Below, piece after piece: positions 36,135 to 56,119 of a stretch of 60,731 nucleotides of DNA. The translations under genes were made by a program, and so were the position numbers. The stretch's first letter is position 1, and the number at the start of each line of letters is the position of its first letter. Under the pieces are notes generated by a model that saw nothing but the letters and a program-made list of their open reading frames with translations, was not told the DNA's origin and ran no database searches. The DNA is from Smithella sp. (lineage in GTDB: Bacteria; Desulfobacterota; Syntrophia; Syntrophales; Smithellaceae): NCBI GenBank assembly GCA_049664145.1, contig JBATES010000123.1, positions 1-60,731 of the forward strand, given 5' to 3'.

Positions 36135-37168
36135 TTAATCATCTGCAACACCTGCCGACGAATCGGCGCTTCCGTCCAATGGGAATTTGCGCGCAAAGTA
36201 TTTTCCACTACAGGTAAGGCGTTCCAGGTAACTTTCATCCAGAGTATTCGGTCCGCTATTTCCGTACGTCCAGAATAAGGCGTGATTACTGGCGGCAACG
36301 CGTAGTGCTTTCATATTACCAATAAGAGTATGAAAGTAGGATTCGTCAGGGATAAAGCACCGGGAAAAATGTTCGGCAATTTGCGGATGATCCTCTGGCA
36401 CCTTTAACAACAACTCGGCAACGCGACGCGATATGCCGAACCATTGTCCGCCAACGTAACAGTTCTCATAATCAAACAATGGAAAGCAGCCTTTCCCATT
36501 CGCTATTGTCATTTTAAAAATCAGCTTTCCCAACCGTTGCCGCAGTCGCCCTGTCAAAGTGGCCTCCGGCCTAGACAGGGCGCAATTCAACACGAGTCCA
36601 TCTGCTGAGCCGTCTTTTCGCTGCCTAGCCACCATGAGCGCGACGTCATGGCTATTCGCATGGCACGCCGGGAGCGCGTAAGATAACGCCATCCGTGGCT
36701 AAGCAGGATATCTGATCCTGGGTTGGTAAGTAGTTCCAGGTCGATCATCGCGTCAGGTTGCGTCGCCGCCAAATATGATTCAAAGTCCTTAATCGAGCGA
36801 ATCGGCAGACAGCTTTCAGACAATAGTTGGAAATGGGTACACTGCGGATCGCGCATCTCCTCCTGCATTAGCAGAGCGCAGGCCTCGACCAAAGACCATC
36901 CGGCCCACGCCGTATTTAGCGGTTGCGGCAGTATGATAACATTAGGCCGTTCAATGTCAAAATCGTAATGCTTTGAAAAATCATGATGTACTATAACCCT
37001 GTGCGGATAGACGGCGTTCGCAAGCTGTGTAACAGCAGCGGCAGAATCCCTGCATGAAAGGACACCGAAGGCGATTTTTGGATACTGCATTTTGTCCTGT
37101 TCTTGTATCATGATGGCAATCAGCTCTGTTTGTCTTCGGTTAGAAAATCGTATAGCATGATTTTTCAA
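36135..37168 (-). pseudogene. GT14 (core-2/I-branching 'Branch' family) glycosyltransferase gene split by a frameshift
   Basis: Two overlapping ORFs in different frames (36587-37168 and 36135-36692). The N-part reads KIAFGVLSCRD...VIVHHD; the C-part reads GGQWFGISRR...YFARKF. Total length 1034 nt is not a multiple of 3. Confidence 0.6.
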
Positions 37169-37748: not shown

Positions 37749-39818
37749 TTATGAAGCATCTCCATTGCCTAAAAAAGTATGCTTTGCCCATGGCTGAGAT
37801 CGATCCCAGCCATTTGCAGATATTGTTTTGAGTTCACGTTTGCTTGGAAGAACAAGCCTGTCTGCACTGAATGTAGCACGCGTGCCATGCCAACCGCGCT
37901 GCTCCACTTCCTCGCGGGAATAAATGCGTTCGTTTCCATATTTTGCGATGGCATGGGCACGGCTTAAGACAATATAGTGACGCAGAATGAAATTATCCGG
38001 ATATATCTTCCTGCCTTCAAAGTTAGCGCTGTGCCCGCCGGAAGAGACGATATCGACGGTCTGGCCGGTATTTTTCCATGCTTTGATCTGCCGTAAAGGT
38101 ATTGGTTCGAAAAAATAATAATACTGCATTTTTTCAACATAATCCGTTCCTTCAAAAGACTCATCGTCTGATGTGGGCAGAAAAATAAATTCATCAAAGT
38201 TGATGGCATTGTAGCCTTCCTGATCGGCTTGCAGGATACCTTCATACAGAGATTTAAAAGGCGTGGGCGCTTCGCGGATTTCGTCGGCATCCAAATGAAT
38301 AAACCAATCAGCATCAATTTCTCTTGATAGTTGTGCTTTGTAAGATAGCAAATTCGTCCAATCATAAAAACCCGGGAAGGGTTGTGTTTCAATTCGAAAT
38401 ACAGCGTGGCCAAGATATTTATGCGCAATTTCCAAAGTGGAATCAGTCGATTCATTATCAATCACACATGTCTCAATGCCTTGTTCATACAAATGTCTCA
38501 AGCATCGATCAAGATACAACGCCTCGTTCCGAACCGTGAGCAGGGCAACGATGCGAATCTTTGATCGTGTATGAATACCCAGGTCAACTGTACCAAGAAA
38601 TGTTTTATTCTTTTCTATTACCTCGAATGACAACAGCCCCGCCTGTTTGTCAATGGGCTGAAAGACTGTCTCTGAAGCCCGGTCTTCGAGTCTGACCGTG
38701 ATGTGATAACGCCCGGCGGCCAGGTTCGCGCTGAAACGCGCAATAATCGCTCCCTTTTTCCATCCTTCACCGTCTAAAATACCATTAAGAGGGAAAAAAC
38801 TGCCTCCCACATCCATCATTCTGCGATCGTGGATGATTAAACTAATATAAGGGTTGGGCAACGACGTAAGGTGTTTAGCTTCGATACGTACTTCAATTTC
38901 TTCTCCTTTCATATAGCTGGAGAACAAGCCTTGTGAATTCGTAAAACTTGCCGATAGAATCTGGCCTTCTTCCGTGCCGAAGGCGATGCCGTTTTTTTCA
39001 CCCAGAAAAGGCTTGACCGTAATATGCTTGCCGGCGGCGGCATAACGGCGCTGCTCATCACGCATATCCATGTAATACCGTTCCGCCATTTCTTCCGGAG
39101 CGCCCCGAGCCCTCTCCCGCCCCTCCTGAAGATATAAAACTTGATGACAAAAATTCTTCATCATACTTACATCATGGGAAACAAAAAGGACGGTGGTGCC
39201 GCCGGATGTCAGAATCCGCAATCTGTCCAGACATTTAAACTGAAAGGCTGCATCGCCAACCGCCAGCGCCTCATCAATGATGAGAATATCCGGGTCCACG
39301 CAAACGGAAACCGCGAAAGCAAGCCTTACCAGCATTCCGCTCGAATATGTTTTCACAGGCTGTTCGATGAAATCGCCAATATCCGCAAACGCTGCAATAT
39401 CCTCAAAGCGGGCATTGATTTCCTCCTGGCTCAACCCCAGAATGGCGCCGTTCATAAAAACATTCTCGCGGCCGGTGAAATCAGGATTGAAACCGGAGCC
39501 CAGTTCCAGTAAGGCAGCAACGCGGCCGTGGGTTTCCACGCTCCCCGTGGTTGGCGAAATGGTGCCGCAGATCAATTGCAAAAGAGTGGATTTTCCAGAA
39601 CCATTGCGGCCAATGATGCCAACCGTCCTGCCCTTGATCACCTCGAATGAAATATCCCTGAGCGCCCAGAATTCGCGATAGTATTGTCCCGGTGTCATAC
39701 CCATAAGGCGTCGAATCCGGGGATAAATAGACTGTTTGAGCCGGTCGTTGGGCTGGTCGTAGATCTGATAGCATTTGCTGAGATTGTTAACCCGTATGGC
39801 AATATTTTCAGAGGACAT
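37749..39818 (-). CDS. wzt: O-antigen ABC exporter ATPase Wzt with a C-terminal carbohydrate-binding-type domain and an additional GT2-like domain
   Basis: Walker A GRNGSGKST, signature YSSGMLVRL, Walker B ILIIDEAL, H-loop SHD. aa about 295-420 form a beta-rich Wzt_C-like module. aa 437-706 have LTVRNEALYL, VIDNESTDST, HLDADE (GT-A). The ATG at 39818 overlaps the wzm stop. Confidence 0.8.
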   Translation of the reverse strand: MSSENIAIRVNNLSKCYQIYDQPNDRLKQSIYPRIRRLMGMTPGQYYREFWALRDISFEVIKGRTVGIIGRNGSGKSTLLQLICGTISPTTGSVETHGRVAALLELGSGFNPDFTGRENVFMNGAILGLSQEEINARFEDIAAFADIGDFIEQPVKTYSSGMLVRLAFAVSVCVDPDILIIDEALAVGDAAFQFKCLDRLRILTSGGTTVLFVSHDVSMMKNFCHQVLYLQEGRERARGAPEEMAERYYMDMRDEQRRYAAAGKHITVKPFLGEKNGIAFGTEEGQILSASFTNSQGLFSSYMKGEEIEVRIEAKHLTSLPNPYISLIIHDRRMMDVGGSFFPLNGILDGEGWKKGAIIARFSANLAAGRYHITVRLEDRASETVFQPIDKQAGLLSFEVIEKNKTFLGTVDLGIHTRSKIRIVALLTVRNEALYLDRCLRHLYEQGIETCVIDNESTDSTLEIAHKYLGHAVFRIETQPFPGFYDWTNLLSYKAQLSREIDADWFIHLDADEIREAPTPFKSLYEGILQADQEGYNAINFDEFIFLPTSDDESFEGTDYVEKMQYYYFFEPIPLRQIKAWKNTGQTVDIVSSGGHSANFEGRKIYPDNFILRHYIVLSRAHAIAKYGNERIYSREEVEQRGWHGTRATFSADRLVLPSKRELKTISANGWDRSQPWAKHTFLGNGDAS

Positions 39819-40659
39819 CGGCAAATCCCTTTCGTGTCTTTTGAAACCAGGCAAATCCGGCCCAGGCAATGATCAGCCCAACCACCATCATAATGCACCA
39901 GGTAACCGGATCAGGCAGTTTCCCGAGGATCAATACGTTTCTCCCCTCTTCGATAATCACGGCCAGGGGATTGAGTCTCATCCATATTCGGTAGGTCTCC
40001 GGTAGAGAGCTAATCGGAAAAAACACACCGGATATAAATAAAAGCACGGTCGTTATGATGCCGGTTATTTGACCGATATCGCGCATAAATACGCCCAGTG
40101 ACGACAGAAACCACGCGAATCCGATTGTTGCAAATACAAGCGGAAGCATAACGACGGGAAAAAGCAGCGCCGTAAAAGGGATATGCCCCATAAAGATTAG
40201 TTGGGCGACGATCAGGACGACCAGGCTTATGACCGCGTGAAAAAGCGCGGACCCGAATGCGATCCACGGCAGTATATCCAACGGGAAGACCACCTTTTTA
40301 ACGTAGTTGACGTTGGAAAGAATAAGTCCCGGCGCGCGATTAACACATTCAGCAAATAATCCATGAATAATCATGCCGACAAAAAGCATCATAGCGAAAT
40401 CCATTTTACCTTCCTGCACGTTAATGCCCCAGCGTGTCTTGAAGACAACTGAAAAAACAAAGGTATAAATAACCAGCATCAGCAGGGGATTGAAAAACGA
40501 CCACGCCATTCCCATCAATGAGCCCTTGTAGCGGCCTACCACTTCGCGCTTGGCCATCTGCACAATGAGCTGGCGGTTATGCCACAGGTTTCTGACCAGC
40601 GCCGCGGGCGATGTGGGATGGGCGGCATGGGGATTGACTTCTATGAGGGAATTAGTCAT
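39808..40659 (-). CDS. wzm: O-antigen ABC exporter permease (ABC-2 type, Wzm)
   Basis: Six TM segments. REVVGRYKGSLMGMAWSFFNPLL N-terminal ABC-2 motif. Paired with wzt. Confidence 0.85.
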   Translation of the reverse strand: MTNSLIEVNPHAAHPTSPAALVRNLWHNRQLIVQMAKREVVGRYKGSLMGMAWSFFNPLLMLVIYTFVFSVVFKTRWGINVQEGKMDFAMMLFVGMIIHGLFAECVNRAPGLILSNVNYVKKVVFPLDILPWIAFGSALFHAVISLVVLIVAQLIFMGHIPFTALLFPVVMLPLVFATIGFAWFLSSLGVFMRDIGQITGIITTVLLFISGVFFPISSLPETYRIWMRLNPLAVIIEEGRNVLILGKLPDPVTWCIMMVVGLIIAWAGFAWFQKTRKGFADVL

Positions 40660-40770: not shown

Positions 40771-42675
40771 TCATCGTCTGATAATCTCTTTCTCTTTGAG
40801 CATATTCAGAATACAGGCAACGCTGTCTTCCACGCTTTGCAAATCCGTATGCAGCAGAATTTCCGGATGATCGGGGGCTTCATACGGCGACGATACACCG
40901 GTAAAATTTTTAATTTCTCCACGCATGGCCTTCTGATACAGCCCATTGGGATCACGCCGCTTGCACACATCCAGATCGCAGGAGACGTGAATTTCAAAAA
41001 AATGCCCTTCCGGAATTAAGGAACGGGCGATGGCTCTGTCTTTAGCAAACGGAGAAATAAATGTGCAAATGACCAGGTGACCGGATTCAAAAAACAGTCT
41101 CGCCACCTGAGCCGCTCTCCTTATATTTTCCTGCCGGTCTTTTTCGGAAAAGCCGAGGTCAGCGCACAAACCGTGGCGCAGCTGGTCACCATCCAGAAGT
41201 ATGGTCTGGTGGCCAAGATCAAAAAGTTTCTTTTCCAGCGCCATGGCGACGGTTGATTTTCCCGCTCCGGATAATCCGGTCAGCCATATAACCGCAGCCT
41301 GATGATTGCTGCGAGCTTCTCGGGTCTGACGATCAATGTTCCAATCCCGCCAAACCGTGTCCGGGGATTTGTTCTGATTGGACATGGCCGTTTCATCTTT
41401 TGGAATAATATCTTCAATCGTTCGGGATAATCCCCGGATCATCCCCGCCGCCACCGTATGATGGGTCAGGGGATCAATCAGGATAAAACACCCCGTACTG
41501 CGGTTCATTTTATAAGGGTCGGAAAAGATCGGCGATGTCGCTTGAAGCTCGACCCGACCGATGTCGTTCAGATTGAGGATATCCGCCTGATGACGATGAA
41601 GGTTATTGACATCCACTTTATAAATAATTCTGGAAACAAACGCTTTAACCGTCCGCGTGGTATGCAGTAAAAGATACGTTTTGTTGAGGGACATGGGCAC
41701 ATCATCCATCCAGCAGATCATGCCTTCAAAATTCGACCCGACATAAGGAAGATTATTCTTCCTGACGATCATATCACCCCGGCTGACATCAATCTCGTCT
41801 TCAAGGGTCAGGACGACGGACTGCGGTACGAAAGCTTCCGTGAGTTCTCCCTCATAGGTGACGATCGATCGGACGCGTGTCGTTTTGCCCGAAGGAAGAA
41901 TGACTATTTCCTCTCCCGGACTCAGTGTGCCGGAAACAATCCTGCCGGCAAAGCCCCTGAAATCCTGATGCGGCCGGATGACATACTGAACCGGAAAACG
42001 AAAGTCCACCAGATTCCTGTCGGCGGAAACGTGCACCGTCTCCAGATAATGGAGCAATGAAGCGCCCTCGTACCAGGGCATGTTCGCGCTTTTTTCCACC
42101 ACGTTGTCACCCTTGAGAGCGGAAACCGGGATGAAGACAAGATCATGGATATCCAGTTTTTCGGAAAATTCGGTATATTGCTCAACGATCATGTTATAAA
42201 CGTCTTCAGAATAATCCACCAGGTCCATCTTGTTGATGGCGACCACCAAATGAGGAATCCGCAAGAGGGATACAAGAAATCCATGGCGTTTGGATTGTGT
42301 AAGCACCCCGTTGCGGGCGTCAATCAGAATGATGGCGCAGTCGGCGGTCGATGCTCCGGTGATCATATTCCGGGTATATTGCTCGTGGCCGGGACTATCC
42401 GTGATAATAAACTTTCTGTTGGCTGTCTCGAAATAACGATGTGCAACATCAATGGTAATGCCCTGTTCCCGTTCCGCGGATAAGCCGTCCAAAAGGAGCG
42501 CCAGATCGACTTCCGCCATTCCCCGCTTGCGGGAGGTTTTTTCTATAGCGGCATACTGATCTTCAAAAATGGTCTTTGTTTCATATAGCAACCGTCCGAT
42601 CAACGTCGATTTGCCGTCGTCCACGCTGCCCGTCGTTGAAAACCGCAGCAGGGTATGTTCTTTACTGGTTGTCAA
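40771..42675 (-). CDS. cysNC: bifunctional sulfate adenylyltransferase subunit 1 / adenylyl-sulfate kinase (CysN-CysC fusion, NodQ-like)
   Basis: GTPase motifs GSVDDGKSTLIGRLL, DSPGHEQY, NKMD. C-terminal APS kinase P-loop LTGLSGAGKSTVA. Confidence 0.93.
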   Translation of the reverse strand: MTTSKEHTLLRFSTTGSVDDGKSTLIGRLLYETKTIFEDQYAAIEKTSRKRGMAEVDLALLLDGLSAEREQGITIDVAHRYFETANRKFIITDSPGHEQYTRNMITGASTADCAIILIDARNGVLTQSKRHGFLVSLLRIPHLVVAINKMDLVDYSEDVYNMIVEQYTEFSEKLDIHDLVFIPVSALKGDNVVEKSANMPWYEGASLLHYLETVHVSADRNLVDFRFPVQYVIRPHQDFRGFAGRIVSGTLSPGEEIVILPSGKTTRVRSIVTYEGELTEAFVPQSVVLTLEDEIDVSRGDMIVRKNNLPYVGSNFEGMICWMDDVPMSLNKTYLLLHTTRTVKAFVSRIIYKVDVNNLHRHQADILNLNDIGRVELQATSPIFSDPYKMNRSTGCFILIDPLTHHTVAAGMIRGLSRTIEDIIPKDETAMSNQNKSPDTVWRDWNIDRQTREARSNHQAAVIWLTGLSGAGKSTVAMALEKKLFDLGHQTILLDGDQLRHGLCADLGFSEKDRQENIRRAAQVARLFFESGHLVICTFISPFAKDRAIARSLIPEGHFFEIHVSCDLDVCKRRDPNGLYQKAMRGEIKNFTGVSSPYEAPDHPEILLHTDLQSVEDSVACILNMLKEKEIIRR

Positions 42676-43598
42676 AAGTATCCCTCTTTTTTCTTCTTCT
42701 CCATGGAAGCATCACTGGTCAAATCAATAACACGGTTTTCCCGTTCCGATTTTTTGGCCACGATCACTTCGGTTATGATTTCGTCAATACTGACCGCCGT
42801 TGACGCAATCGCGCCGGTGCAGGGAATGCATCCCAGACTCCGGAAGCGGCATCGCACGGTCTCAACGATTTCCTTTTCCGTCGGGCCGTCCTTCTCCGCG
42901 GCAACCACAGATGCCGACGACAGCGGAATCAAAATGCCGTTGCGCCGGACAACCTTCCGTTCCATGGCAAAGTAGATTGGCACCACCGGAATATTTTCCA
43001 TTTTAATATACTGCCAGATATCCTTTTCCGTCCAGTTGCTGAGCGGGAAAACCCTTACGGTCTCCCCTTCATTAATATGTGTATTATAAAGATCCCAGAC
43101 TTCCGGCCGCTGATTCTTGGGGTCCCACTGACCAAAGGCATCCCGCAGAGAAAAGACGCGCTCCTTGGCCCGTGACTTCTCCTCTTCCCTTCTGGCCCCG
43201 CCGATGGCCGCGTCAAAACCGTGTTTTTTGATGGCGGTGAGCAATGCCCCGGTTTTGAGATGACTGCAACATTTATCAACACCGGTCTTCAGGGGGTGAC
43301 ATCCCCTGGCAATCCACTCTTCGTTGCGTTCCACAATAAGCCGGACATCCAGCTTTTTGCAGAAAGCGTCCCTGAAGGCATACATTTCCGGAAACTTGAA
43401 GCCGGTATCCACATGCATCAGAGGGAAAGGAATCGGGCCTGGATAAAACGCCTTCAGTGCCAGGCGCACCAGTACGCTGGAATCCTTACCCACGGAATAG
43501 AGCAAAACGGGGTTCTTAAATTCCGCCGCTACCTCCCGCAGAACATGAATGGATTCAGATTCGAGCTGTTTCAGATACGGCATGCTGTATGAGGACAT
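42672..43598 (-). CDS. cysD: sulfate adenylyltransferase subunit 2
   Basis: PP-loop LLYSVGKDSSVL, CysD-type C-terminus (RFRSLGCIPCTG). 4-nt overlap with cysNC. Confidence 0.93.
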   Translation of the reverse strand: MSSYSMPYLKQLESESIHVLREVAAEFKNPVLLYSVGKDSSVLVRLALKAFYPGPIPFPLMHVDTGFKFPEMYAFRDAFCKKLDVRLIVERNEEWIARGCHPLKTGVDKCCSHLKTGALLTAIKKHGFDAAIGGARREEEKSRAKERVFSLRDAFGQWDPKNQRPEVWDLYNTHINEGETVRVFPLSNWTEKDIWQYIKMENIPVVPIYFAMERKVVRRNGILIPLSSASVVAAEKDGPTEKEIVETVRCRFRSLGCIPCTGAIASTAVSIDEIITEVIVAKKSERENRVIDLTSDASMEKKKKEGYF

Positions 43599-44395
43599 CA
43601 GCTGATTTCTCCTGACAAATAGGCCCGCGTCCGTTCATCTTTCGGAGCATTGAATAGTTCTTCGGCGGGGCCGTATTCCACCACTTCGCCCATGTACATA
43701 AAGACCACATAATCGGCCAGACGCCTTGCCTGACGAAGGATGTGGGTCACAACCACCAGAGTGTAGTCTTGTTTTAAAATCTTAAAACGGGATTCGACAA
43801 TCTTGGAGGAAACGGGATCCAGTGCCGACGTGGGTTCGTCGGCAAGAATAACCTCCGGTTCCACAGCCAGCGTTCTGGCCAAGGCCAGGCGCTGCAGCTG
43901 TCCGATGGAAAGTTTCGCCGCGGGGCTATGCAAGCGGTCTTTCACCTCGTCCCAGAGACCGGCCAGCTGCAAATAGTGTTCAACACAATGATCCATGGCG
44001 GAACGTGCATTTTGGGAAGCTACCTTGGCTGCCTTTTTCGGAATCCCCTCCCCGTTCAATCCGTGAATCTTCGGTCCGAACGCAACATTATTGTAAATTG
44101 ACATGGGAAGCGGATAAGGCCGCTGGGAAAGAAATCCGACCTTTTTCCGCAAAGCCAGAAGGTCGGCATCCTGATCATAAATATTGATCCCATCAATGAC
44201 AACCGATCCGGTCAGTGATACTTCATCGTAAAGATCCAGAAGCCGGTTCATGCTTTTAAGCAACGTTGTTTTACCACAGCCGGATGGACCGATAATCGCG
44301 ACAATCTGACGGTCGGGGATATCCAGGGTAACCTGTTTGAGTACCTCGAAATCTCCGTAGTGAACTGATAGATCATGTATTTGTATATGGGACAT
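43598..44395 (-). CDS. pstB: PstB-family ABC transporter ATPase (atypical signature motif)
   Basis: PstB-like N-terminus with GPSGCGKTTLLKSMNRL, LWDEVKDRLH. Signature LSIGQLQR instead of LSGGQQQR. Walker B ILADEP. The stop shares 1 nt with the cysD ATG. Confidence 0.8.
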   Translation of the reverse strand: MSHIQIHDLSVHYGDFEVLKQVTLDIPDRQIVAIIGPSGCGKTTLLKSMNRLLDLYDEVSLTGSVVIDGINIYDQDADLLALRKKVGFLSQRPYPLPMSIYNNVAFGPKIHGLNGEGIPKKAAKVASQNARSAMDHCVEHYLQLAGLWDEVKDRLHSPAAKLSIGQLQRLALARTLAVEPEVILADEPTSALDPVSSKIVESRFKILKQDYTLVVVTHILRQARRLADYVVFMYMGEVVEYGPAEELFNAPKDERTRAYLSGEIS

Positions 44396-44407
44396 CGTTT
44401 TTATTCC

Positions 44408-45253
44408 TTAACGGATTACATTTCTTGAGAAACGTTCCCCCAGTATTCTTGCCGCAATATTGACCACAAGCACAATCAAAAGCAGAACCAGAGCGGCGGC
44501 ATAAGCCCGTTCCTGCACTTCCGGAATGGGCGTCCCGATCTGAAAAAAAATGGCCAGAGGCAAAGATGCAACAGGATCCATCAATGACCGCGGCATATGA
44601 TCGGTATATCCGGCCGTAAAAAGAATGGAGGCCGCATCCCCGATCGCCCGGCCGAAAGCGAGAATAACTGCCGTAACAATACCGGGAATAACCTGCCTGA
44701 AAACGATCCATGTTGTTTCCAGCCGTGTTGTGCCCAGAGAGACGGCAATCTCTCTTAATTCCGCGGGAACCATGCGCAGGATCTCTTCCATCAACCGGAC
44801 CATAATGGGCATCGTCAGAAGTGTCAACACAAAGATGCCCCCCAAAAGAGATGCGCGAATGCCGAAATAAACCATCACCACAAAGCCGACGGCGCCATAA
44901 ACAATGGAAGGGGTCCCCCACAGCACTTCCAGGACAACCCGGCTAATACGGGCAAGGCGGGAACTGGCATATTCCTTCTGCAGCGCAAAAGCGACCGGGA
45001 GACTGAAAAACAACGCGCAAAGGGATGCGCCAAAAGCAAGATACAGGGAGCCGGCAATGGCATTGGCAATACCTCCTTCACCTCCCAGATAATATCCGCC
45101 TTTCGGGATATCGATGAGCATGGAGAGACTCAGTGCGGAAGCGCCCCTGACCAATATAACAAGAATCACACCGGCAAGCATGCCGAGCAGTAAAATCAGG
45201 GATAACTGCATTAATCGCTTAAAAAAAATCTCCTGCTGCTTGCGGTTCAGCAT
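44408..45253 (-). CDS. pstA: PstA-like ABC permease
   Basis: Six TM segments. EAA loop ELREIAVSLGTTRLETTWIVFRQV. Position pstS-pstC-pstA-pstB. Confidence 0.8.
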   Translation of the reverse strand: MLNRKQQEIFFKRLMQLSLILLLGMLAGVILVILVRGASALSLSMLIDIPKGGYYLGGEGGIANAIAGSLYLAFGASLCALFFSLPVAFALQKEYASSRLARISRVVLEVLWGTPSIVYGAVGFVVMVYFGIRASLLGGIFVLTLLTMPIMVRLMEEILRMVPAELREIAVSLGTTRLETTWIVFRQVIPGIVTAVILAFGRAIGDAASILFTAGYTDHMPRSLMDPVASLPLAIFFQIGTPIPEVQERAYAAALVLLLIVLVVNIAARILGERFSRNVIR

Positions 45254-46144
45254 TTAAAAAGAATACCTCCTGTGCATCCGGGAAAGAACCGCATGGGCGG
45301 CAATACTGAAACCCGCAACAATCACCATCAGGATCAGAGCGGCAAACAGCAGGGCCGAATCATATTTCGGTATCGACATCATCTCTCCGTAGTTGTTGGC
45401 AATCAGCGCCGGCAAGGGATAGACTGGGTCCAGGAGATGGCCGGGGATTTTAGCAACGTTGCCCGCGACCATCATGACGGCCATGGTTTCCCCAACGGCC
45501 CTGGCCAGACCGAGCACGATGGCGGCGATAATGCCAGGCCGTGATATTTTTAACAGCACATACCAAATAACTTCCCATCTTGTAGCGCCCAGAGAAATGG
45601 CGCTCTCCCTGACCTCCCGCGGAACATTGATCAGCACTTCAACCGTTAAAGAAATGATAAAAGGGCTGATCATTAATGCCAGGATAATCCCTGCTGCCAG
45701 GAGGCTATATCCGGTGCTGGGTCTGCCGGTCAATTCGCCAAGCAACCGCACCGCCGGGACCACCGTCAACACACCGAAGAGACCGAATATCACGGAAGGA
45801 ATACCTGCCAGAATATCAATCGACAAACGAATCCATTTGCGCAGGCGATGATTCATGTACTCTGTTATATACACGGAGCTCATCAAACAGACGGGCAACG
45901 CAAAAATCATGGCCAGCGCCGTGACAGCCAGCGACCCCGCGATAAAAGGGAGAAAGCCGAATTGGCCTTGTTGAGGGGACCAGACCGAGGTGAACAGGAG
46001 TTCTCCCAAAGAAATCGAGGATAGAATCGGTGCGGCTTTGACCGCAATAATCCCCAGAATCAGAAAGGCAATCCCGTATAGCAGCAAATGGGAAAAACGG
46101 ATCAGCGCACCGGCAACAGCGCTTTTGGCTTTTCGGTAAAACAT
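45254..46144 (-). CDS. pstC: PstC-like ABC permease
   Basis: Six TM segments. EAA loop EVRESAISLGATRWEVIWYVLL. Confidence 0.8.
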   Translation of the reverse strand: MFYRKAKSAVAGALIRFSHLLLYGIAFLILGIIAVKAAPILSSISLGELLFTSVWSPQQGQFGFLPFIAGSLAVTALAMIFALPVCLMSSVYITEYMNHRLRKWIRLSIDILAGIPSVIFGLFGVLTVVPAVRLLGELTGRPSTGYSLLAAGIILALMISPFIISLTVEVLINVPREVRESAISLGATRWEVIWYVLLKISRPGIIAAIVLGLARAVGETMAVMMVAGNVAKIPGHLLDPVYPLPALIANNYGEMMSIPKYDSALLFAALILMVIVAGFSIAAHAVLSRMHRRYSF

Positions 46145-46149
46145 CTTCT

Positions 46150-47121
46150 TTAGTTTTTCACCTTCCCGACGGCTTCCTGAATTTGCGAATCGGGAAGCCT
46201 GATATATCCCACCTCATCCACGAATTTTTGCCCATCCGTCAAGATCCAGAGGACGAATTCACGCACAGCTCCCGAAAATTGTCCTTTAACAACAATATAC
46301 AAATCACGCGCCGGGGGCGAAGGGTAAAGGCCTTTACGCACGGCGTCCATCGCTTTTTCTTTGGTGCTTAAATCTTCTTCCGGATCAACGTGTCCGTTTT
46401 CATTAATATCCACGGGGATGACCCGGATGCCTTCCTGTGGGATACCGGTTTTCATATCATAAGCATAATTGAGATTGTTATATCCAATGCCCCGTGTGTT
46501 TTTTTTCACTGCCTCCGTGATACCGGGATCGCCATAAACACCGACGCCCTTGAGATTCTCCTGGTGCTTGCCCAGATAAGCCGCCCAGGTTTCTGACGCC
46601 CCGCAGGAATCAGAACGTGTGAAAAGATGAACAGCATCATTATTCTTGCCGCCGGTTAACTGCCCCCACGTCAAGGATTGACCATCGATCCACAACGCCA
46701 CGAACTGCTTTTTCGTAAGCCCCTTGGCTGCAACTTCCCGCATGACGGGATTGTTTGCATTCATAACGGGAAAAACCGCGTCTTTGACGACCGGAATGTA
46801 TTTTGCCCCACGCTGTATTTCCTCCGGCTTAATATTTCGGGAAACCATCCCGATATCTACCAGACCGGTAAGTGCTTCAGCAATTCCTTTACCGGCACCG
46901 CCCGCAGCAACATCAATCTGACAACCGGGGTGCGTCTTTTTGTATTCGTCAGCCCACCGAATCATCATGGGGTAGAGCGCCCAGGCTCCAGAAATACGGA
47001 TCGTACCCTGAGAGCCGTTGCGGGGCACATCTTTCCCGCCTTCCGAATTACATGCGCAGAGGGTAGCGGCCATGACCACAACAATCATTAGCCTTACAAC
47101 TTTATTTTTTAAATAATGCAT
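46150..47121 (-). CDS. pstS: PstS-family (PBP2) periplasmic oxyanion-binding lipoprotein
   Basis: Lipobox TLCAC. GAWALYPMM, AAGGAGKGIAEALTGLVDIGMVSR, TRSDSCGASETW segments of the PstS/PhoT fold. Confidence 0.75.
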   Translation of the reverse strand: MHYLKNKVVRLMIVVVMAATLCACNSEGGKDVPRNGSQGTIRISGAWALYPMMIRWADEYKKTHPGCQIDVAAGGAGKGIAEALTGLVDIGMVSRNIKPEEIQRGAKYIPVVKDAVFPVMNANNPVMREVAAKGLTKKQFVALWIDGQSLTWGQLTGGKNNDAVHLFTRSDSCGASETWAAYLGKHQENLKGVGVYGDPGITEAVKKNTRGIGYNNLNYAYDMKTGIPQEGIRVIPVDINENGHVDPEEDLSTKEKAMDAVRKGLYPSPPARDLYIVVKGQFSGAVREFVLWILTDGQKFVDEVGYIRLPDSQIQEAVGKVKN

Positions 47122-47189
47122 TTGCTTCTCCTTTTCAATAGGGAATGATCATTAACATAATCGTAGCCGTTATCCTTTTGCGTGGCAAC

Positions 47190-48638
47190 CTATCTGAAGG
47201 AATGCCTCAGCCAAATCATGTCCTGTATCGTCAGGCACTTAAGCAGGTAACCTCCGACGGATAAAGTAACCAAAGAGCCCGCAAGAGCCAAAACCGGACC
47301 GGTGTAATACAGGATATGAAATGTTACCATAGTCAGCAAAAGCGCCAGTCCTGGTTTGATCACGGAAGAGCGTAAATCGAGCGTCATGCGTTTATGCACT
47401 ACGGTTATCAAACAAATTGATGTCAGAGTCATTGCAGCTGTCGCTGTCCAAATCGCGCCAACGGCATGATACATCAACACAGCTTTCGAAATGACTAAAA
47501 GGAAAAATAACGCGCCCAGCGCAGCGCAAAGCAGAACACGTCCGTCTTGTTTGCCGGCTATCAAAATACCGGTCATAGCGTGATTGGCCGCCAAGGGGAT
47601 CAACAGCCACAGCACTGGCCCAATCAAGGCTCCGGCCTGAGTGTAGCGATCGCCAAAGATTTGAACCGTCATCCAGGGACCGAAAGCTGTCCCCAGGAGA
47701 ATCAGGACCGTTCCGGAAAGCAGTGAAAAGCGAAGCGCCGTTTCCGCAAACAAACGGTCTTTTCCGTCCTCCCTGGCCACCGACCGGCTCAGAGCCGGCA
47801 GCATAACACTCCCGAGGGCCATTGGAATATAAGAGAGAATGATAAACGCCTGCATGGCCAGCGCCAGTTGTCCCAGAGTATCACTGGCAGAAGCCACGTG
47901 GCGAAAAAATATCAAGGGCCCTTGGTTCGGAAAAGCCATTAAAAGCATCGCTACTCCCAGGGGAACACCCTGAAGGAAAATCCGGCTCAGCTCCGCAAAA
48001 TTCATTCCCAACCTTAAAGGAAATACCCGGCGATGAATCATGAACAATCCGTAGAAGGCTTCAAGACACCAGACCAGTCCATGGATCAGAACCACCGGCA
48101 GCGCCTCTTGCCAGAGGATAAGGACCAAAAGGCCCAGAACCACTTCCAGCGGTCTGAAGATGGACTGCTGCCGGAAGGAATATTGATTGACTTCATAAGC
48201 CGTATAAACCGTTTCAGTCCAAGCAGCCATGGAACGACCGATCAGCGCGAAGGCGAAAAAAAATACCAGCAACCGGGACGCAGGATCGTCCTCTATAAAA
48301 AGAGAGAGAGAAAGATAGACCGCCGTGGCCATGAGGATGGACACAATCCGCAGAGTGAGGGTGAGTGACGCTGTGTGATTGCCCTTACGCCGGTCTTTAC
48401 CAACCTCCCTGCTCAAAACAACAGCCAGCCCCATACTGGTCAAGGGCATGAATAATAGGTACCAGGCGATTCCATAACTGATCATCCCGTAAACCTTGGG
48501 TCCCAAAACCCGAGCCAGGATCACCACATAAATAAACCGCGTGATGAAGTAAACACCGCGGCCTGCCAGCAAGTAGGTTAAATTTCTGGCGAGAGAGGCA
48601 ACACCTCTTCCTTCAATAACCGGCTTTAAGCTGGGCAA
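47190..48638 (-). CDS. wzx: polysaccharide flippase (MOP superfamily, Wzx-like)
   Basis: About 14 TM segments. N-terminal LARNLTYLLAGRGVYFITRFIYVVILARVLGPKVYG typical of oligosaccharide flippases. Confidence 0.75.
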   Translation of the reverse strand: MPSLKPVIEGRGVASLARNLTYLLAGRGVYFITRFIYVVILARVLGPKVYGMISYGIAWYLLFMPLTSMGLAVVLSREVGKDRRKGNHTASLTLTLRIVSILMATAVYLSLSLFIEDDPASRLLVFFFAFALIGRSMAAWTETVYTAYEVNQYSFRQQSIFRPLEVVLGLLVLILWQEALPVVLIHGLVWCLEAFYGLFMIHRRVFPLRLGMNFAELSRIFLQGVPLGVAMLLMAFPNQGPLIFFRHVASASDTLGQLALAMQAFIILSYIPMALGSVMLPALSRSVAREDGKDRLFAETALRFSLLSGTVLILLGTAFGPWMTVQIFGDRYTQAGALIGPVLWLLIPLAANHAMTGILIAGKQDGRVLLCAALGALFFLLVISKAVLMYHAVGAIWTATAAMTLTSICLITVVHKRMTLDLRSSVIKPGLALLLTMVTFHILYYTGPVLALAGSLVTLSVGGYLLKCLTIQDMIWLRHSFR

Positions 48639-48744: not shown

Positions 48745-49680
48745 TTAATTCGTCGCGGGATCATTCAGCCAATGAGTCAAATCCCGATCGATTAAGACTT
48801 GGAGCCTGGAGACGTCATCCCGATATAGGCTTTCCAGGATGCGCCTGGTCTCCGGCTTCATGATTTTTGTTTTGGCTAACAACCTGGATTTCAGTTTCTC
48901 CCGTAAACGGGTCCATCCATCCTCGGTGAAGATATTTTTACCCAGAAAGCTAACGACACTCTGCAATGGTGGCTTCCTGCTAAACAAGCTCTTAAGCAGC
49001 TTTGATTTGGGAACACCGGAGATATTATAGTCGGTCGTCATATCCGGAATGAAAGTGGCATCAACTTCCAGGAAGCGATACAGCTCTTGTATCAGAGAGA
49101 CCGGCTGGCGTTTCAAATCATCAAACAGACATACTTTTACCCTGCTGAAATGATCGAAGTAAGCCTTAACCTGGTGCGTATAGAATCCCAAATCCTGGTA
49201 ATACCAGGTTGGCCTCCACCCCTCCTTGATTCTTTTCGCTTCTTGTTGAAGAGCTTCCTCGAACGGCAGATTTTCCCGTCCTTCCAGGGTGAGCTCCGCG
49301 TGGGCTGCAAATGCTCTTTCAACAGGATTTCTGAGGATAATAATAATTTTGGGGTCACCCAAATACTGCCTGATCAGAGGAATGGTCTTCCGGTAATAAT
49401 AAAGATTCGTGTGACTGGCTTCGCCAATGACTTTCTTGCCGTCCGTGTATTCAAAAAGCCGGCGGTACTCGTCAAAATTTTGCACGATATTCAGGCAGTC
49501 ATCGCCGATGCCACCTGTCGGAATTTTGGAAAATTGTGCAAAAAAGAAATCCGGTTCTTTGGGGATACTCATGAAAACGTCGGGATGCTGTTTTAAGGCG
49601 TGATACAGGGACGTCATCCCGCATTTGGCTGCACCAACCAACAAGAAGTTGGGCAAGATGGGTTTTAAAATTTTAGTCAT
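48745..49680 (-). CDS. sulfotransferase-domain protein (paralogue 1)
   Basis: 5'-PSB loop FLLVGAAKCGMTSLY, 3'-PB IIILRNPVERAFA. Collinear similarity to 55175-56119. Confidence 0.85.
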   Translation of the reverse strand: MTKILKPILPNFLLVGAAKCGMTSLYHALKQHPDVFMSIPKEPDFFFAQFSKIPTGGIGDDCLNIVQNFDEYRRLFEYTDGKKVIGEASHTNLYYYRKTIPLIRQYLGDPKIIIILRNPVERAFAAHAELTLEGRENLPFEEALQQEAKRIKEGWRPTWYYQDLGFYTHQVKAYFDHFSRVKVCLFDDLKRQPVSLIQELYRFLEVDATFIPDMTTDYNISGVPKSKLLKSLFSRKPPLQSVVSFLGKNIFTEDGWTRLREKLKSRLLAKTKIMKPETRRILESLYRDDVSRLQVLIDRDLTHWLNDPATN

Positions 49681-54033: not shown

Positions 54034-55178
54034 ACAACCTCTTTGTTATGGCCTGGAATCATCCATCTGTCAGCGATCGCAAAACATTGAACAGTGCAAT
54101 CCTCAGCAATCCGGTTTTTGTACGTGCAATTGCGGCATAAATAGAAGTCATTGTGCCCGGAGTTGAAGGCCTTTCGAAAGTCCGCAGCCACACGGCTCTT
54201 CCAGACGCTTAGAACATTCCTGTCTTTGATGTTGCCGAATGAGTGTTTGTTCTTATACTCGAATTCGCAGGGAATTATCTCGCCTGTCGCATCCATGGTG
54301 ATGCGCTTCCACGGCCGCATGCAAACAAAAGGCTTTTCTTTTCGTGTGAACGTGCCCGCATTATACTCATACCTGCGATAATCGGATTTTTCCGGCGCAT
54401 AGGATTGATCCAGATCACTTCCCAGAACCGGGGGCATATCCACGGTTTTCAATGTAAAATAATCAACGCCAAGTTTTTTCGCCAGGTCCCGTGCTGCCGG
54501 CACCTCAGATTCATTGTGGCGCATGACGACAAAACGCATGTTGATTCTCGGTGTGTCCACGCCTTTCATGGAGCGCACGCGCAGAATCTTCTGTATGTTG
54601 GAAACCACAATATCAAGGCGGCCGCCCTGACGATACTGTTCATAGGTCTTTTGCGTAGCGCCGTCTACCGCAACAACCAGAGAGTCGAGGCCTGAATCCA
54701 CCAGGGCTTCGGCCTGTGCCTCATCGAGCGGCACATTGCCGTTGGTGCTGGTATGCACAATGATGCCCTTCGCTTTGGCATAGGCAATCATTCGAATCAG
54801 ATCCGGATTGAGGAAGGGCTCACCCCAGTTCCAGAAAATGAGGTGCAACAGATAGTCGCCGCAATCATCAATAAACTGTTTGAAAGTCTGAAAGGGCAAT
54901 AAACTGGGCCTTCTGGATTTGGTAATGGATGACGTCAGGCACAATGGGCAGGACAAATTGCAGAAATTAGCCGGCTCGACCTGGGCGATGACCGGATAGC
55001 CCAGCGGTCGTGACGGCAACAGGTATTGATTTAATCCGGCCAGAAAAAAATTGGCCGCTTTGCGCAGGCCGATCTTTCTGGCGGAATAGGGAAGCAGTTC
55101 AAATTCAAAATCGAATTGACCTTTGAAAAACAGAGCCGGTATTTGAAATGCAACATCACGCAGTTGAAATATTTTCAT
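54030..55178 (-). CDS. radical SAM enzyme with C-terminal SPASM-type Cys-rich domain
   Basis: CNLSCPLC (CxxxCxxC) cluster motif, GEPFLNP. C-terminal cysteines CMRPW...CEFEY...CRNCTYKN. Confidence 0.85.
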   Translation of the reverse strand: MKIFQLRDVAFQIPALFFKGQFDFEFELLPYSARKIGLRKAANFFLAGLNQYLLPSRPLGYPVIAQVEPANFCNLSCPLCLTSSITKSRRPSLLPFQTFKQFIDDCGDYLLHLIFWNWGEPFLNPDLIRMIAYAKAKGIIVHTSTNGNVPLDEAQAEALVDSGLDSLVVAVDGATQKTYEQYRQGGRLDIVVSNIQKILRVRSMKGVDTPRINMRFVVMRHNESEVPAARDLAKKLGVDYFTLKTVDMPPVLGSDLDQSYAPEKSDYRRYEYNAGTFTRKEKPFVCMRPWKRITMDATGEIIPCEFEYKNKHSFGNIKDRNVLSVWKSRVAADFRKAFNSGHNDFYLCRNCTYKNRIAEDCTVQCFAIADRWMIPGHNKEVV

Positions 55179-56119
55179 ATTGGGTCCTTCCCCAGCCAGG
55201 CGCTCAGCTCTCTTCCGATGAGATCCTGTAGCTTCAAAATGTCCTCTCTGTAATAGCTCCGCAGACTGCGCTCTATATCATACGGCATCGCCTCTGGTTT
55301 GTCCATGTTGATGAACCGGACGCGGTCGCGCAGGCGGATCCACCTATCTGCTCCCAGGATCGAACCGCCGATGGTTCGGGCAATCTTGTGCAGCCTTTTA
55401 GGCTTAAAGAAAAGATCGTTGAAAAGACTCCAACGTGGAATACCTGAGACATTGTGATTGTGGTTTCTATCCGGAATAAAATTTGGCTCAACGTCGAGAA
55501 AAGCATATACGGAATGAATCAGCGTAATGGGATCGCGCAGGAGATCATCATGGAGAAGAACCTTCACTCGGCTGAATTGCTTTTGAAAGGCATGCACCCT
55601 TGGAGCATACAAGCCACCTTGCAGATAGTGCCACATACACGCATACCCATCCTGTATACGTTCTTCCTCCGCGGCCAAAGCGTCTTTAAAACAAAGCTTT
55701 TCACGGCCATCCCGTACATGATAATTATAGGCGGAATAGGCGCGTTTTACCGGATCCCTCAGAATAATAATGATCCTGGGATCGCCAAGATATCGTTGAA
55801 TGGCCGGTATCGTCTTTTCAAAAAGAAACAGAGTGTCCACGCTGGCCTCACCTATCGCCTTCTTGCCAACACTTTTTTTAAACAAGCCAAGGTAATCGTC
55901 AAACAAGCCTATGCTGCTTTGTGCAACTATATTGTCGCCGGGGCCTCTGCCCGGATTGGCCGCGCGACCGCTCAAATATCGCGGTTCCTTGACCGGGCTC
56001 ATAAAGACATCCGGATGCTGCCGGAGATAATGATAAAGCGATGTCGTGCCGCATTTGGCCGCACCTGCAATCAGAAAGTTCGGCAGAATCGGTTGGACTA
56101 TTTTTGACATTCCCATCAC
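55175..56119 (-). CDS. sulfotransferase-domain protein (paralogue 2)
   Basis: 5'-PSB loop FLIAGAAKCGTTSLY, 3'-PB IIILRDPVKRAYS. 4-nt overlap with the radical SAM gene. Confidence 0.85.
   Translation of the reverse strand: MMGMSKIVQPILPNFLIAGAAKCGTTSLYHYLRQHPDVFMSPVKEPRYLSGRAANPGRGPGDNIVAQSSIGLFDDYLGLFKKSVGKKAIGEASVDTLFLFEKTIPAIQRYLGDPRIIIILRDPVKRAYSAYNYHVRDGREKLCFKDALAAEEERIQDGYACMWHYLQGGLYAPRVHAFQKQFSRVKVLLHDDLLRDPITLIHSVYAFLDVEPNFIPDRNHNHNVSGIPRWSLFNDLFFKPKRLHKIARTIGGSILGADRWIRLRDRVRFINMDKPEAMPYDIERSLRSYYREDILKLQDLIGRELSAWLGKDPI

Follow-up and report, generated by a model that had tools for sequence, protein, structure and literature searches.

Introduction

Why should an operon for surface glycans carry what looks like a phosphate importer, and why should that importer run directly into genes that activate sulfate? 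The question is posed by a stretch of 60,731 nucleotides (nt) from Smithella sp. (GenBank assembly GCA_049664145.1, contig JBATES010000123.1, positions 1 to 60,731), which is referred to here as the window. Four consecutive genes resembling pstS, pstC, pstA and pstB lie on its minus strand between the gene for a Wzx-type flippase and cysD, and all four open reading frames (ORFs) are where a sequence-only reading of the window had placed them. That reading had proposed that they form a dedicated uptake system for sulfate, or for an oxyanion of that kind. The proposal is supported here, though not proven, by a conserved six-gene module, by the sulfur contexts of related loci, by the dismantling of the phosphate ligands in the substrate-binding protein (SBP), and by the presence of PhoU beside the closest relatives that retain the canonical motifs.

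We consider it probable that the four genes encode an ATP-binding cassette (ABC) importer of the S-type Pst branch whose SBP, judging from its residues, was rebuilt for a fully deprotonated tetrahedral oxyanion. Sulfate would be the most likely cargo, because the module is conserved, the clade is large, its neighbours are sulfur genes without PhoU, and its phosphate ligands have been replaced.

A Six-Gene Module Joins the Importer to Sulfate Activation

All genes of the module lie on the minus strand. The first (46150-47121) encodes the SBP, a 323-residue lipoprotein of PstS ancestry (PF12849 PBP_like_2, 101 bits) that we predict to bind sulfate. It is followed by genes for a PstC-like permease (45254-46144; 296 residues; TIGR02138, 244 bits against a cut-off of 196), a PstA-like permease (44408-45253; 281 residues; TIGR00974, 180.7 against 193.45) and a PstB-like ATPase (43598-44395; 265 residues; TIGR00972, 310.7 against 343.2), with gaps of 5, 0 and 12 nt between the four. 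Next comes CysD, the small subunit of ATP sulfurylase (42672-43598; NF003587, 449 bits against 195), and then a CysN-CysC fusion (40771-42675; NF004035, 926 bits against 715), in which the GTPase subunit of ATP sulfurylase is joined to adenosine 5'-phosphosulfate (APS) kinase and which makes 3'-phosphoadenosine 5'-phosphosulfate (PAPS). The junction between the pstB-like gene and cysD reads ...atcagcTGATGtcc and contains the overlap TGATG, so that the sharing of a single nucleotide reported earlier can be seen directly: one A is common to the stop codon TGA (43600-43598) and the cysD start codon ATG (43598-43596). The cysD stop and the cysNC start, a TTG codon, overlap in turn as TTGA. Neither CysH nor sulfite reductase belongs to the module, and flux therefore ends in PAPS here.

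The meeting of pst-like and cysDN genes is not a product of chance, because the same order, SBP-permease-permease-ATPase-CysD-CysNC, recurs in relatives whose SBPs are 52-84% identical to that of the window. It was found in L001 (SBP identity 84%), L003 (76%) and L004-L006 (60%), each of which sits in a different glycan cluster. More than 120 relatives of the SBP were recovered at 56-96% identity, from Smithellaceae, Smithella and Nitrospirae metagenome-assembled genomes (MAGs) among others, and the closest relatives of the genes from SBP to CysNC come from Smithellaceae MAGs. Where the sources name these relatives (PGAP, IMG), they are called phosphate transporter or substrate-binding protein.

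A genome scan with two motifs of the clade, taking one genome per species, extended this picture considerably. SBP relatives turned up in at least 552 species-level genomes (552 of the 600 stretches listed). The bacterial carriers include Thermodesulfobacteriota, Chloroflexota, Acidobacteriota, Planctomycetota, Bacteroidota, Kiritimatiellota, NC10, Aminicenantes, Armatimonadota and others; the archaeal carriers include Methanoperedens, ANME-1, Methanospirareceae and Bathyarchaeia. Eighty loci were kept for tblastn searches with the window proteins, and in most of those long enough to show them the three transporter partners adjoin the SBP gene. Close homologues of CysD and CysNC follow directly downstream in Syntrophaceae, Smithella, NC10 and Holophaga and stand a few genes off in Kiritimatiellae and Bacteroidales, while more divergent CysD-like and CysN-like genes lie downstream in ANME-1, Methanospirareceae, Syntrophorhabdaceae and other loci. 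On a quick maximum-likelihood tree of the SBPs, members with a link to sulfate activation stand at scattered points; 12 label changes are needed and at least four are forced by well-supported branches, and the scatter spans nine phyla; because of it, the link to sulfate activation cannot be read as a single inherited accident. The canonical S-type PstS proteins PBP-1 and Sll0540 stand across a very long, well-supported branch from the clade. The coupling to cysDN is one recurrent arrangement of a large family and not a peculiarity of the window's glycan operon. In this one respect the earlier reading has to be widened.

Ancestry of the Binding Protein

By sequence and fold, the SBP is of PstS ancestry. 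It has a signal peptide with an LCAC lipobox, and its 30 best sequence matches in the PDB are phosphate-binding proteins or their close homologues, such as Sll0540; the closest solved relatives are of the S-type, led by Clostridium perfringens PBP-1 (4GD5/4Q8R, E = 9e-21). An AlphaFold model of moderate confidence (predicted local distance difference test, pLDDT, 76), used for fold assignment only, gave PstS-type structures as its first 40 Foldseek matches and a first ModA-like match at rank 44, with no Sbp among the 50 matches listed. The curated PstS models, on the other hand, score the protein below their cut-offs without exception (TIGR02136, 118.4 against 206.6; TIGR00975, 75.7 against 205; NF008171, 24.3 against 339).

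The four genes also fall outside the CysPTWA/Sbp family, as had been claimed. The SBP has no match to the Sbp/CysP family (TIGR00971, SBP_bac_11) at E <= 1e-3, and the remaining proteins score far below the cut-offs of the corresponding models: the permeases reach 44.7 against 246.1 for CysT and 38.7 against 329.1 for CysW, and the ATPase 127 against 342.75 for the sulfate ATPase subfamily and 112 against 502 for CysA. Models for molybdate and tungstate systems were likewise below cut-off (ModB, 55.3 against 182.6; WtpB, 26.8 against 340; WtpC, 111 against 440). No TupA-specific model matched at E <= 0.001 in a library whose content for TupA was not confirmed.

A Phosphate Pocket Stripped of Most of Its Hydroxyls

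The ligands of the bound anion are known in PBP-1, where HPO4 is held by Ser11, Thr12, Ser13, Ser41, Ser59, Arg125, Ser129, Gly130 and Thr131, and where Ser13 has been proposed to accept the proton of the phosphate (PMC5381212). In SphX the equivalent of Ser13 is Thr17, which is activated as the acceptor by an Asp-Arg pair and whose mutation substantially lowers binding affinity (PMC13614923). We mapped these positions onto the clade by a hidden Markov model (HMM) alignment to PBP-1 at about 23% identity, comprising 84 clade rows, in which positions in the alignment correspond to the residue numbering of the published structure.

Six of the seven phosphate-binding hydroxyls of PBP-1 are replaced in the SBP of the window. 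Ser11 is replaced by Ala46, the proton acceptor Ser13 by Ala48, Ser41 by Ala76 and Thr131 by Ala175, each of these being Ala in 84 of 84 rows; Thr12 is replaced by Trp47 (W in 69 rows, F in 15) and Ser129 by Cys173 (C in 69, A in 15). What remains is Ser59, Arg125 and Gly130, kept as Ser94, Arg169 and Gly174 in every row. The loop T-R169-S-D-S-C173-G-A175-S aligns on R125-E-D-G-S129-G130-T131 of PBP-1, and the HMM thereby gives the same placement as the by-eye alignment of R-S-D-S-C-G-A-S to the anion loop that had been offered before. Positions 94, 169 and 173-175 lie outside the scan motifs. Those motifs do cover positions 46-48 and 76, and the invariance of Ala46, Ala48 and Ala76 also holds in 40 hits of a word-based search.

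The pocket that this mapping predicts would consist of five backbone NH groups, one Ser hydroxyl and the Arg guanidinium, that is, of hydrogen-bond donors only, with no acceptor for a proton. Such a donor-only pocket would therefore suit a fully ionised anion such as sulfate. According to Pflugrath and Quiocho, Sbp is said to hold sulfate in comparable fashion, by five backbone NH groups, one Ser hydroxyl and one Trp NH. The last of these raised the possibility that Trp47 is a convergent copy of the indole donor Trp192 of Sbp, and Cys173 was similarly entertained as an essential thiol donor. Both ideas were dropped on the strength of the row counts given above, as Trp47 is not essential and the thiol is not either. 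Positions 47 and 173 vary independently, including among members linked to sulfate activation, and Phe47 also occurs in members linked to CysH-CysDN and to Sat.

Genomic Neighbourhoods of the Clade

Flanking ORFs of the clade loci were clustered, the cluster representatives were annotated, and every nearest neighbour was run through Pfam. Within two genes downstream of the transporter (63 loci), the tally comprises PAPS_reduct, that is CysD or CysH (15 loci), APS kinase (12), CysN-type GTPase (12) and ATP sulfurylase of the Sat type (3, including one fused to APS kinase, in a Chloroflexus MAG), together with TauE/SafE (2), NfeD (7) and a weak Na_Pi_cotrans match (5). A second binding protein, SBP_bac_11 with TIGR00971 as its best match, occurs in this interval in 4 of the 63. 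One gene upstream (73 loci), we found Rrf2 in 19, MetW in 5 and Porin_O_P in 3. Altogether, a gene for a sulfur enzyme or sulfur transporter is found no farther than 4.5 kb away in 33 of 77 loci, a figure that rises to 56 when Rrf2, present within that distance in 25 loci, is counted. PhoU is absent from both Pfam tallies, and a tblastn search with an approximate E. coli PhoU, a query of limited reach, found none in any locus or in the window; the area covered amounts to 80 loci, each to a distance of about 8 kb.

The Rrf2 protein, exemplified by L039:7543-7959, is the commonest upstream neighbour, and its best specific model is CymR, the cysteine-metabolism repressor (70.7 bits, below cut-off). 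It can be considered a candidate for a regulator of the family that responds to sulfur; the window itself has none. In a Methanoperedens MAG (L044:3161-6245), the transporter genes are immediately preceded by those for MetY (O-acetylhomoserine sulfhydrylase), MetX and MetW, and L058 carries members of the same three ORF clusters; this arrangement ties the transporter to sulfur amino-acid synthesis in these archaea.

Two further contexts deserve mention in their own right. In four Anaerolineae loci (L026, L034, L037 and L048), an Sbp-like second binding protein (TIGR00971, 120 bits, below cut-off) stands downstream of the ATPase and is followed by a membrane protein that weakly matches Na_Pi_cotrans and by a tandem Usp protein, with OmpR-type regulators and hybrid kinases upstream in several of them, so that sulfur and phosphate signals are mixed. 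In three loci of Thermodesulfobacteriota, a protein of PF01663 (type I phosphodiesterase/nucleotide pyrophosphatase) is encoded between the ATPase and the divergent CysD-like and CysN-like genes (L011:11604-12569, L020:11550-12968 and L022:11561-12835).

The Edge of the Family

An exhaustive HMMER search over 1.84 billion cluster representatives returned 174 at E <= 1e-30, 966 at E <= 1e-10 and 4156 at E <= 0.001. When full-length hits were aligned, the core pattern A-[WFY]-A / A / S-R / R-x-D-x-[CSA]-G-A was seen to reach down to roughly 35-40% identity, with further variants beyond it, such as A-Y-A / T / ... S-G-A. The full canonical S-type set, S-[ST]-[ST] / S / S-R / R-x-[DE]-x-S-G-T, is present in proteins at 32-40% identity. 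Two of these canonical-motif relatives, P0178 (39% identity) and P0240 (32%), have a gene with a PhoU domain directly upstream in divergent orientation. This contrast group is small, at four canonical-motif relatives of which two have usable flanks, the contigs of the other two being too short to show phosphate genes, but its evidence runs in the direction expected.

One distant variant was encountered as an orphan without permease genes (L093:8001-8984; 37% identity; A-Y-A / T / S-R / R-x-D-x-S-G-A). It adjoins genes on the opposite strand that resemble components of heterodisulfide reductase or Qmo (FAD_binding_2/Fer4, CCG, Fer4).

Permeases and ATPase

The permeases resemble their phosphate counterparts at the site where the anion crosses the membrane. 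In E. coli, PstC R237/E241 and PstA R220/E224 form a transmembrane anion site, and the Arg pair is said to give specificity for inorganic phosphate (PMC12976172). Alignment to 9K3S chain B identifies R215 and E219 of the PstC-like protein as the equivalents of R237 and E241, and alignment to 9K3X chain A shows that the PstA-like protein keeps the Arg equivalent to R220 and has Asp in place of E224. We had regarded this site as a potential discriminator between sulfate and phosphate and dropped it, the Arg pair being present. Because the pair is kept, and would serve sulfate as well as phosphate, the transmembrane site is uninformative on the cargo.

The ATPase departs from convention in its signature, which is LSIGQLQR, as had been reported and as can be read in the translation (AAKLSIGQLQRLALARTL). 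The form LS[IVTAL]GQ(Q/L)QR is shared by all 72 clade ATPases, that of the window included (one reads ISVGQ), and LSGGQ occurs in none of the 72, the second Gly being Ile, Val, Thr, Ala or Leu; the other motifs are intact. A sub-clade of Thermodesulfobacteriota and NC10 members, to which the window belongs, has an insertion of about 15-35 residues after GPxIHG (GPKIHGL in the window). Pfam and NCBIfam detect nothing beyond the ABC domain in the 265-residue protein.

Weighing the Cargo

Several observations count against sulfate. All homology of the four proteins is to phosphate systems, the PstC-like permease scores above the curated PstC cut-off, and the Arg pair of the membrane site, which has been tied to phosphate specificity in E. 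coli, is kept. Among the 77 loci, 21 have no informative sulfur neighbour, and phosphate-flavoured neighbours do occur, namely Na_Pi_cotrans-like proteins in 5 loci, Porin_O_P in 3 and OmpR-type regulators in 6. The pocket is read from aligned sequences that share about 23% identity and from a model whose quality is moderate (pLDDT 76), and the invariance of Ala46, Ala48 and Ala76 is partly by construction among the loci found by motif, because the motifs cover those columns.

One alternative, which we think unlikely, is that the main cargo is another deprotonated oxyanion (thiosulfate, selenate, molybdate or tungstate) and that sulfate is at best a side substrate. Any fully ionised tetrahedral oxyanion could be accommodated by a hydroxyl-poor pocket made up entirely of donors, neighbours of the MetY or TauE kind are not specific to sulfate, and a molybdopterin oxidoreductase lies upstream in two loci. 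PF12849 also includes binders of tungstate of the TupA type. The commonest enzymes beside the transporter, however, are CysD/CysN and Sat, which act on sulfate, and the module of the window feeds only PAPS synthesis and sulfotransferases. Genes for molybdenum or tungsten cofactors are absent from the top-25 neighbour tallies, and the matches to ModB and WtpB are, as described, far below cut-off.

It is improbable, in our estimation, that the system is a genuine phosphate importer, perhaps of low selectivity, which might sit in a glycan operon since, for example, PAPS synthesis and nucleotide-sugar metabolism consume phosphate. The annotations of PGAP and IMG agree with this explanation, as do the Pst proteins that are the best matches of all four subunits, the conserved equivalents of PstC R237 and PstA R220, and the few clade loci whose neighbours resemble Na/Pi cotransporters, OprO/P or OmpR-type regulators. 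Yet it has to accommodate the replacement throughout the clade of six of seven hydroxyl ligands, the proton acceptor among them, and a binding protein far below the curated PstS cut-offs. PhoU, encoded beside canonical-motif relatives, is found in none of the 77 loci and not in the window, where Pho-box-like repeats occur at chance level (5 loose matches against 3.8 expected, none in the 68-nt gap ahead of the SBP gene). Nor would phosphate transport explain why fusion to genes of sulfate activation has recurred at scattered places on the tree.

Pst has a known signalling role, and Rrf2 adjoins the transporter in many clade loci, but it is very improbable that the system mainly reports oxyanion availability to a regulator, as Pst does to PhoR, with transport secondary, given that the window has no adjacent regulator, that the ATPase motifs are intact save for the second Gly of the signature, that the four subunits are kept in most loci long enough to show them, and that translational coupling to biosynthetic enzymes argues for supply.

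The Glycan Island

Between 58.9 kb and 22.7 kb of the window, nearly all genes are on the minus strand and form part of a surface-glycan island, whose content includes glycosyltransferases, a pyruvyl transferase, the Wzx flippase, Wzm/Wzt exporters, an O-antigen-ligase-like gene and at least two sulfotransferases. Tol-Pal genes are found at the 5' end of the window, which is therefore taken to be chromosome of a diderm bacterium. The Wzx-type flippase gene (47190-48638; PF01943) lies directly upstream of the SBP gene, from which it is separated by a gap of 68 nt (47122-47189) that holds an AGGAG ribosome-binding site 8 nt ahead of the ATG. A promoter-like match in this gap, TTGCCA-17-TACGAT, is weak (9 of 12 positions) and no better than background; a promoter scan of the intergenic gaps found nothing above background, and a terminator scan found no terminator-like hairpin in the gaps of the operon, this one included.

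Directly downstream of cysNC is the gene for the Wzm permease (39808-40659, minus strand; PF01061), followed by one for a Wzt ATPase fused to a GT2 domain (37749-39869, minus strand; PF00005, PF14524 and PF13704). The latter combines a Wzt_C glycan-binding domain with a C-terminal GT2-like domain (PF13704/PF00535) and represents an unusual fusion of exporter and glycosyltransferase. A sulfotransferase gene, whose product is a consumer of PAPS, is co-directional in the same glycan operon (48745-49680, minus strand; PF13469, PF00685), and the second sulfotransferase of the island lies further upstream (55175-56119, minus strand; PF13469, PF00685). Two overlapping minus-strand ORFs (36587-37168 and 36135-36692) match positions 31-118 and 162-225 of the PF02485 profile (Core-2/I-branching enzyme), and together look like one glycosyltransferase gene (36135-37168) split by a frameshift or a sequencing error.

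A Proposed Route from Periplasmic Sulfate to Sulfated Glycan

If the cargo is indeed sulfate, a simple route may be proposed. Periplasmic sulfate would be captured by the binding lipoprotein and passed to the PstC/PstA-like channel with its two conserved arginines, transport being powered by ATP hydrolysis in the PstB-like dimer. CysD and CysN-CysC, translated from the same message, would convert sulfate to APS and then to PAPS, and the sulfotransferases of the island would use the PAPS to make a sulfated surface polysaccharide. A syntroph in sulfate-poor, sulfide-rich habitats would on this account need a high-affinity sulfate pump only for sulfation.

Implications

For the family as a whole, we lean towards the view that it constitutes a sixth family of prokaryotic sulfate transporters, derived from S-type Pst by stripping the SBP of its hydroxyl ligands and proton acceptor and found in anaerobic bacteria and archaea, with carriers in at least 552 species-level genomes. 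It would supply either assimilation, with Sat, CysH or MetXYW as neighbours and Rrf2/CymR-like control, or, as in the window, the synthesis of PAPS directly, for the sulfation of glycans. The recognised families for sulfate uptake are SulT (CysPTWA/Sbp), SulP, DASS, PiT-type CysP and CysZ (PMC5840216), to which sulfate as the cargo would add a widespread ABC family; our literature searches, of incomplete coverage, found no published description of a Pst-type sulfate importer.

Such an assignment would carry several consequences. Hundreds of genomes would bear a wrong "phosphate transporter" label, distorting reconstructions of phosphorus and sulfur metabolism in anaerobic communities. The mislabelling would touch methane-oxidising archaea too, whose sulfate transporters are uncertain (PMC6286981). 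The SBP would represent a natural experiment in discrimination between phosphate and sulfate, in which fold and Arg are the same and the acceptor-capable hydroxyls are gone except for one Ser, and it would be useful for understanding and engineering anion selectivity. Finally, for the organism of the window, the assignment would suggest a syntroph that lives on sulfide and yet maintains a sulfate pump for the single purpose of decorating its surface glycan.

Comparison with Known Systems

The system is most readily set against PstSCAB of Escherichia coli (TC 3.A.1.7; 9K3S/9K3X, 1IXH), with which it shares the four-subunit architecture, the gene order, full-length alignment of the permeases, a PstB-like ATPase and the PstS fold. 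It differs in that the SBP of the window lacks both the phosphate ligand set and the proton acceptor, that the system has neither PhoU nor Pho-box, that its signature is LS[IVTAL]GQ rather than LSGGQ, and that its operon runs into cysD-cysNC. The architecture is that of Pst, whereas the SBP scores below the curated PstS cut-off, its ligand set is different and linkage to PhoU is lacking. The S-type PstS proteins (PBP-1, Synechocystis SphX and Sll0540) come closer, as they share the Ser-Arg motif at the Asp56 position and the Arg-x-Asp loop, and the Asp114/Arg272 pair of the window corresponds to the S-type Asp-Arg pair. Even so, the Thr/Ser proton acceptor of that triad is lost in the clade, and a very long branch separates the clade from PBP-1 and Sll0540.

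CysPTWA/Sbp (SulT, TC 3.A.1.6) resembles the system in genomic linkage to sulfate activation, in the high-affinity, ATP-driven uptake of sulfate that we predict, and in what would be an all-donor pocket. The two are nonetheless not homologous at the family level, as SBP, permeases and ATPase alike fall outside the SulT models. The sulfate transporter under Rrf2 control in Clostridium thermocellum is one that we take to be of the CysPTWA type. Its Rrf2 regulator is encoded upstream of the transporter and provides an instance of Rrf2-type control of sulfate uptake in an anaerobe (PMC3848806). It was considered as a potential Pst-like case and set aside, there being no sign of a Pst type in that report, so that it serves as an analogy only.

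The nearest precedent in logic is CysP of Bacillus subtilis, a member of the PiT family (TC 2.A.20.4.1) that carries sulfate, has lost the Asp residues critical for phosphate, and is encoded in an operon with sat (PMC5840216). CysP is a secondary carrier without relation to the ABC system of the window, and complementation has proven its function, whereas that of the window's system is predicted. In both, however, a member of a phosphate family has shed its phosphate-critical residues and stands beside the genes that activate sulfate.

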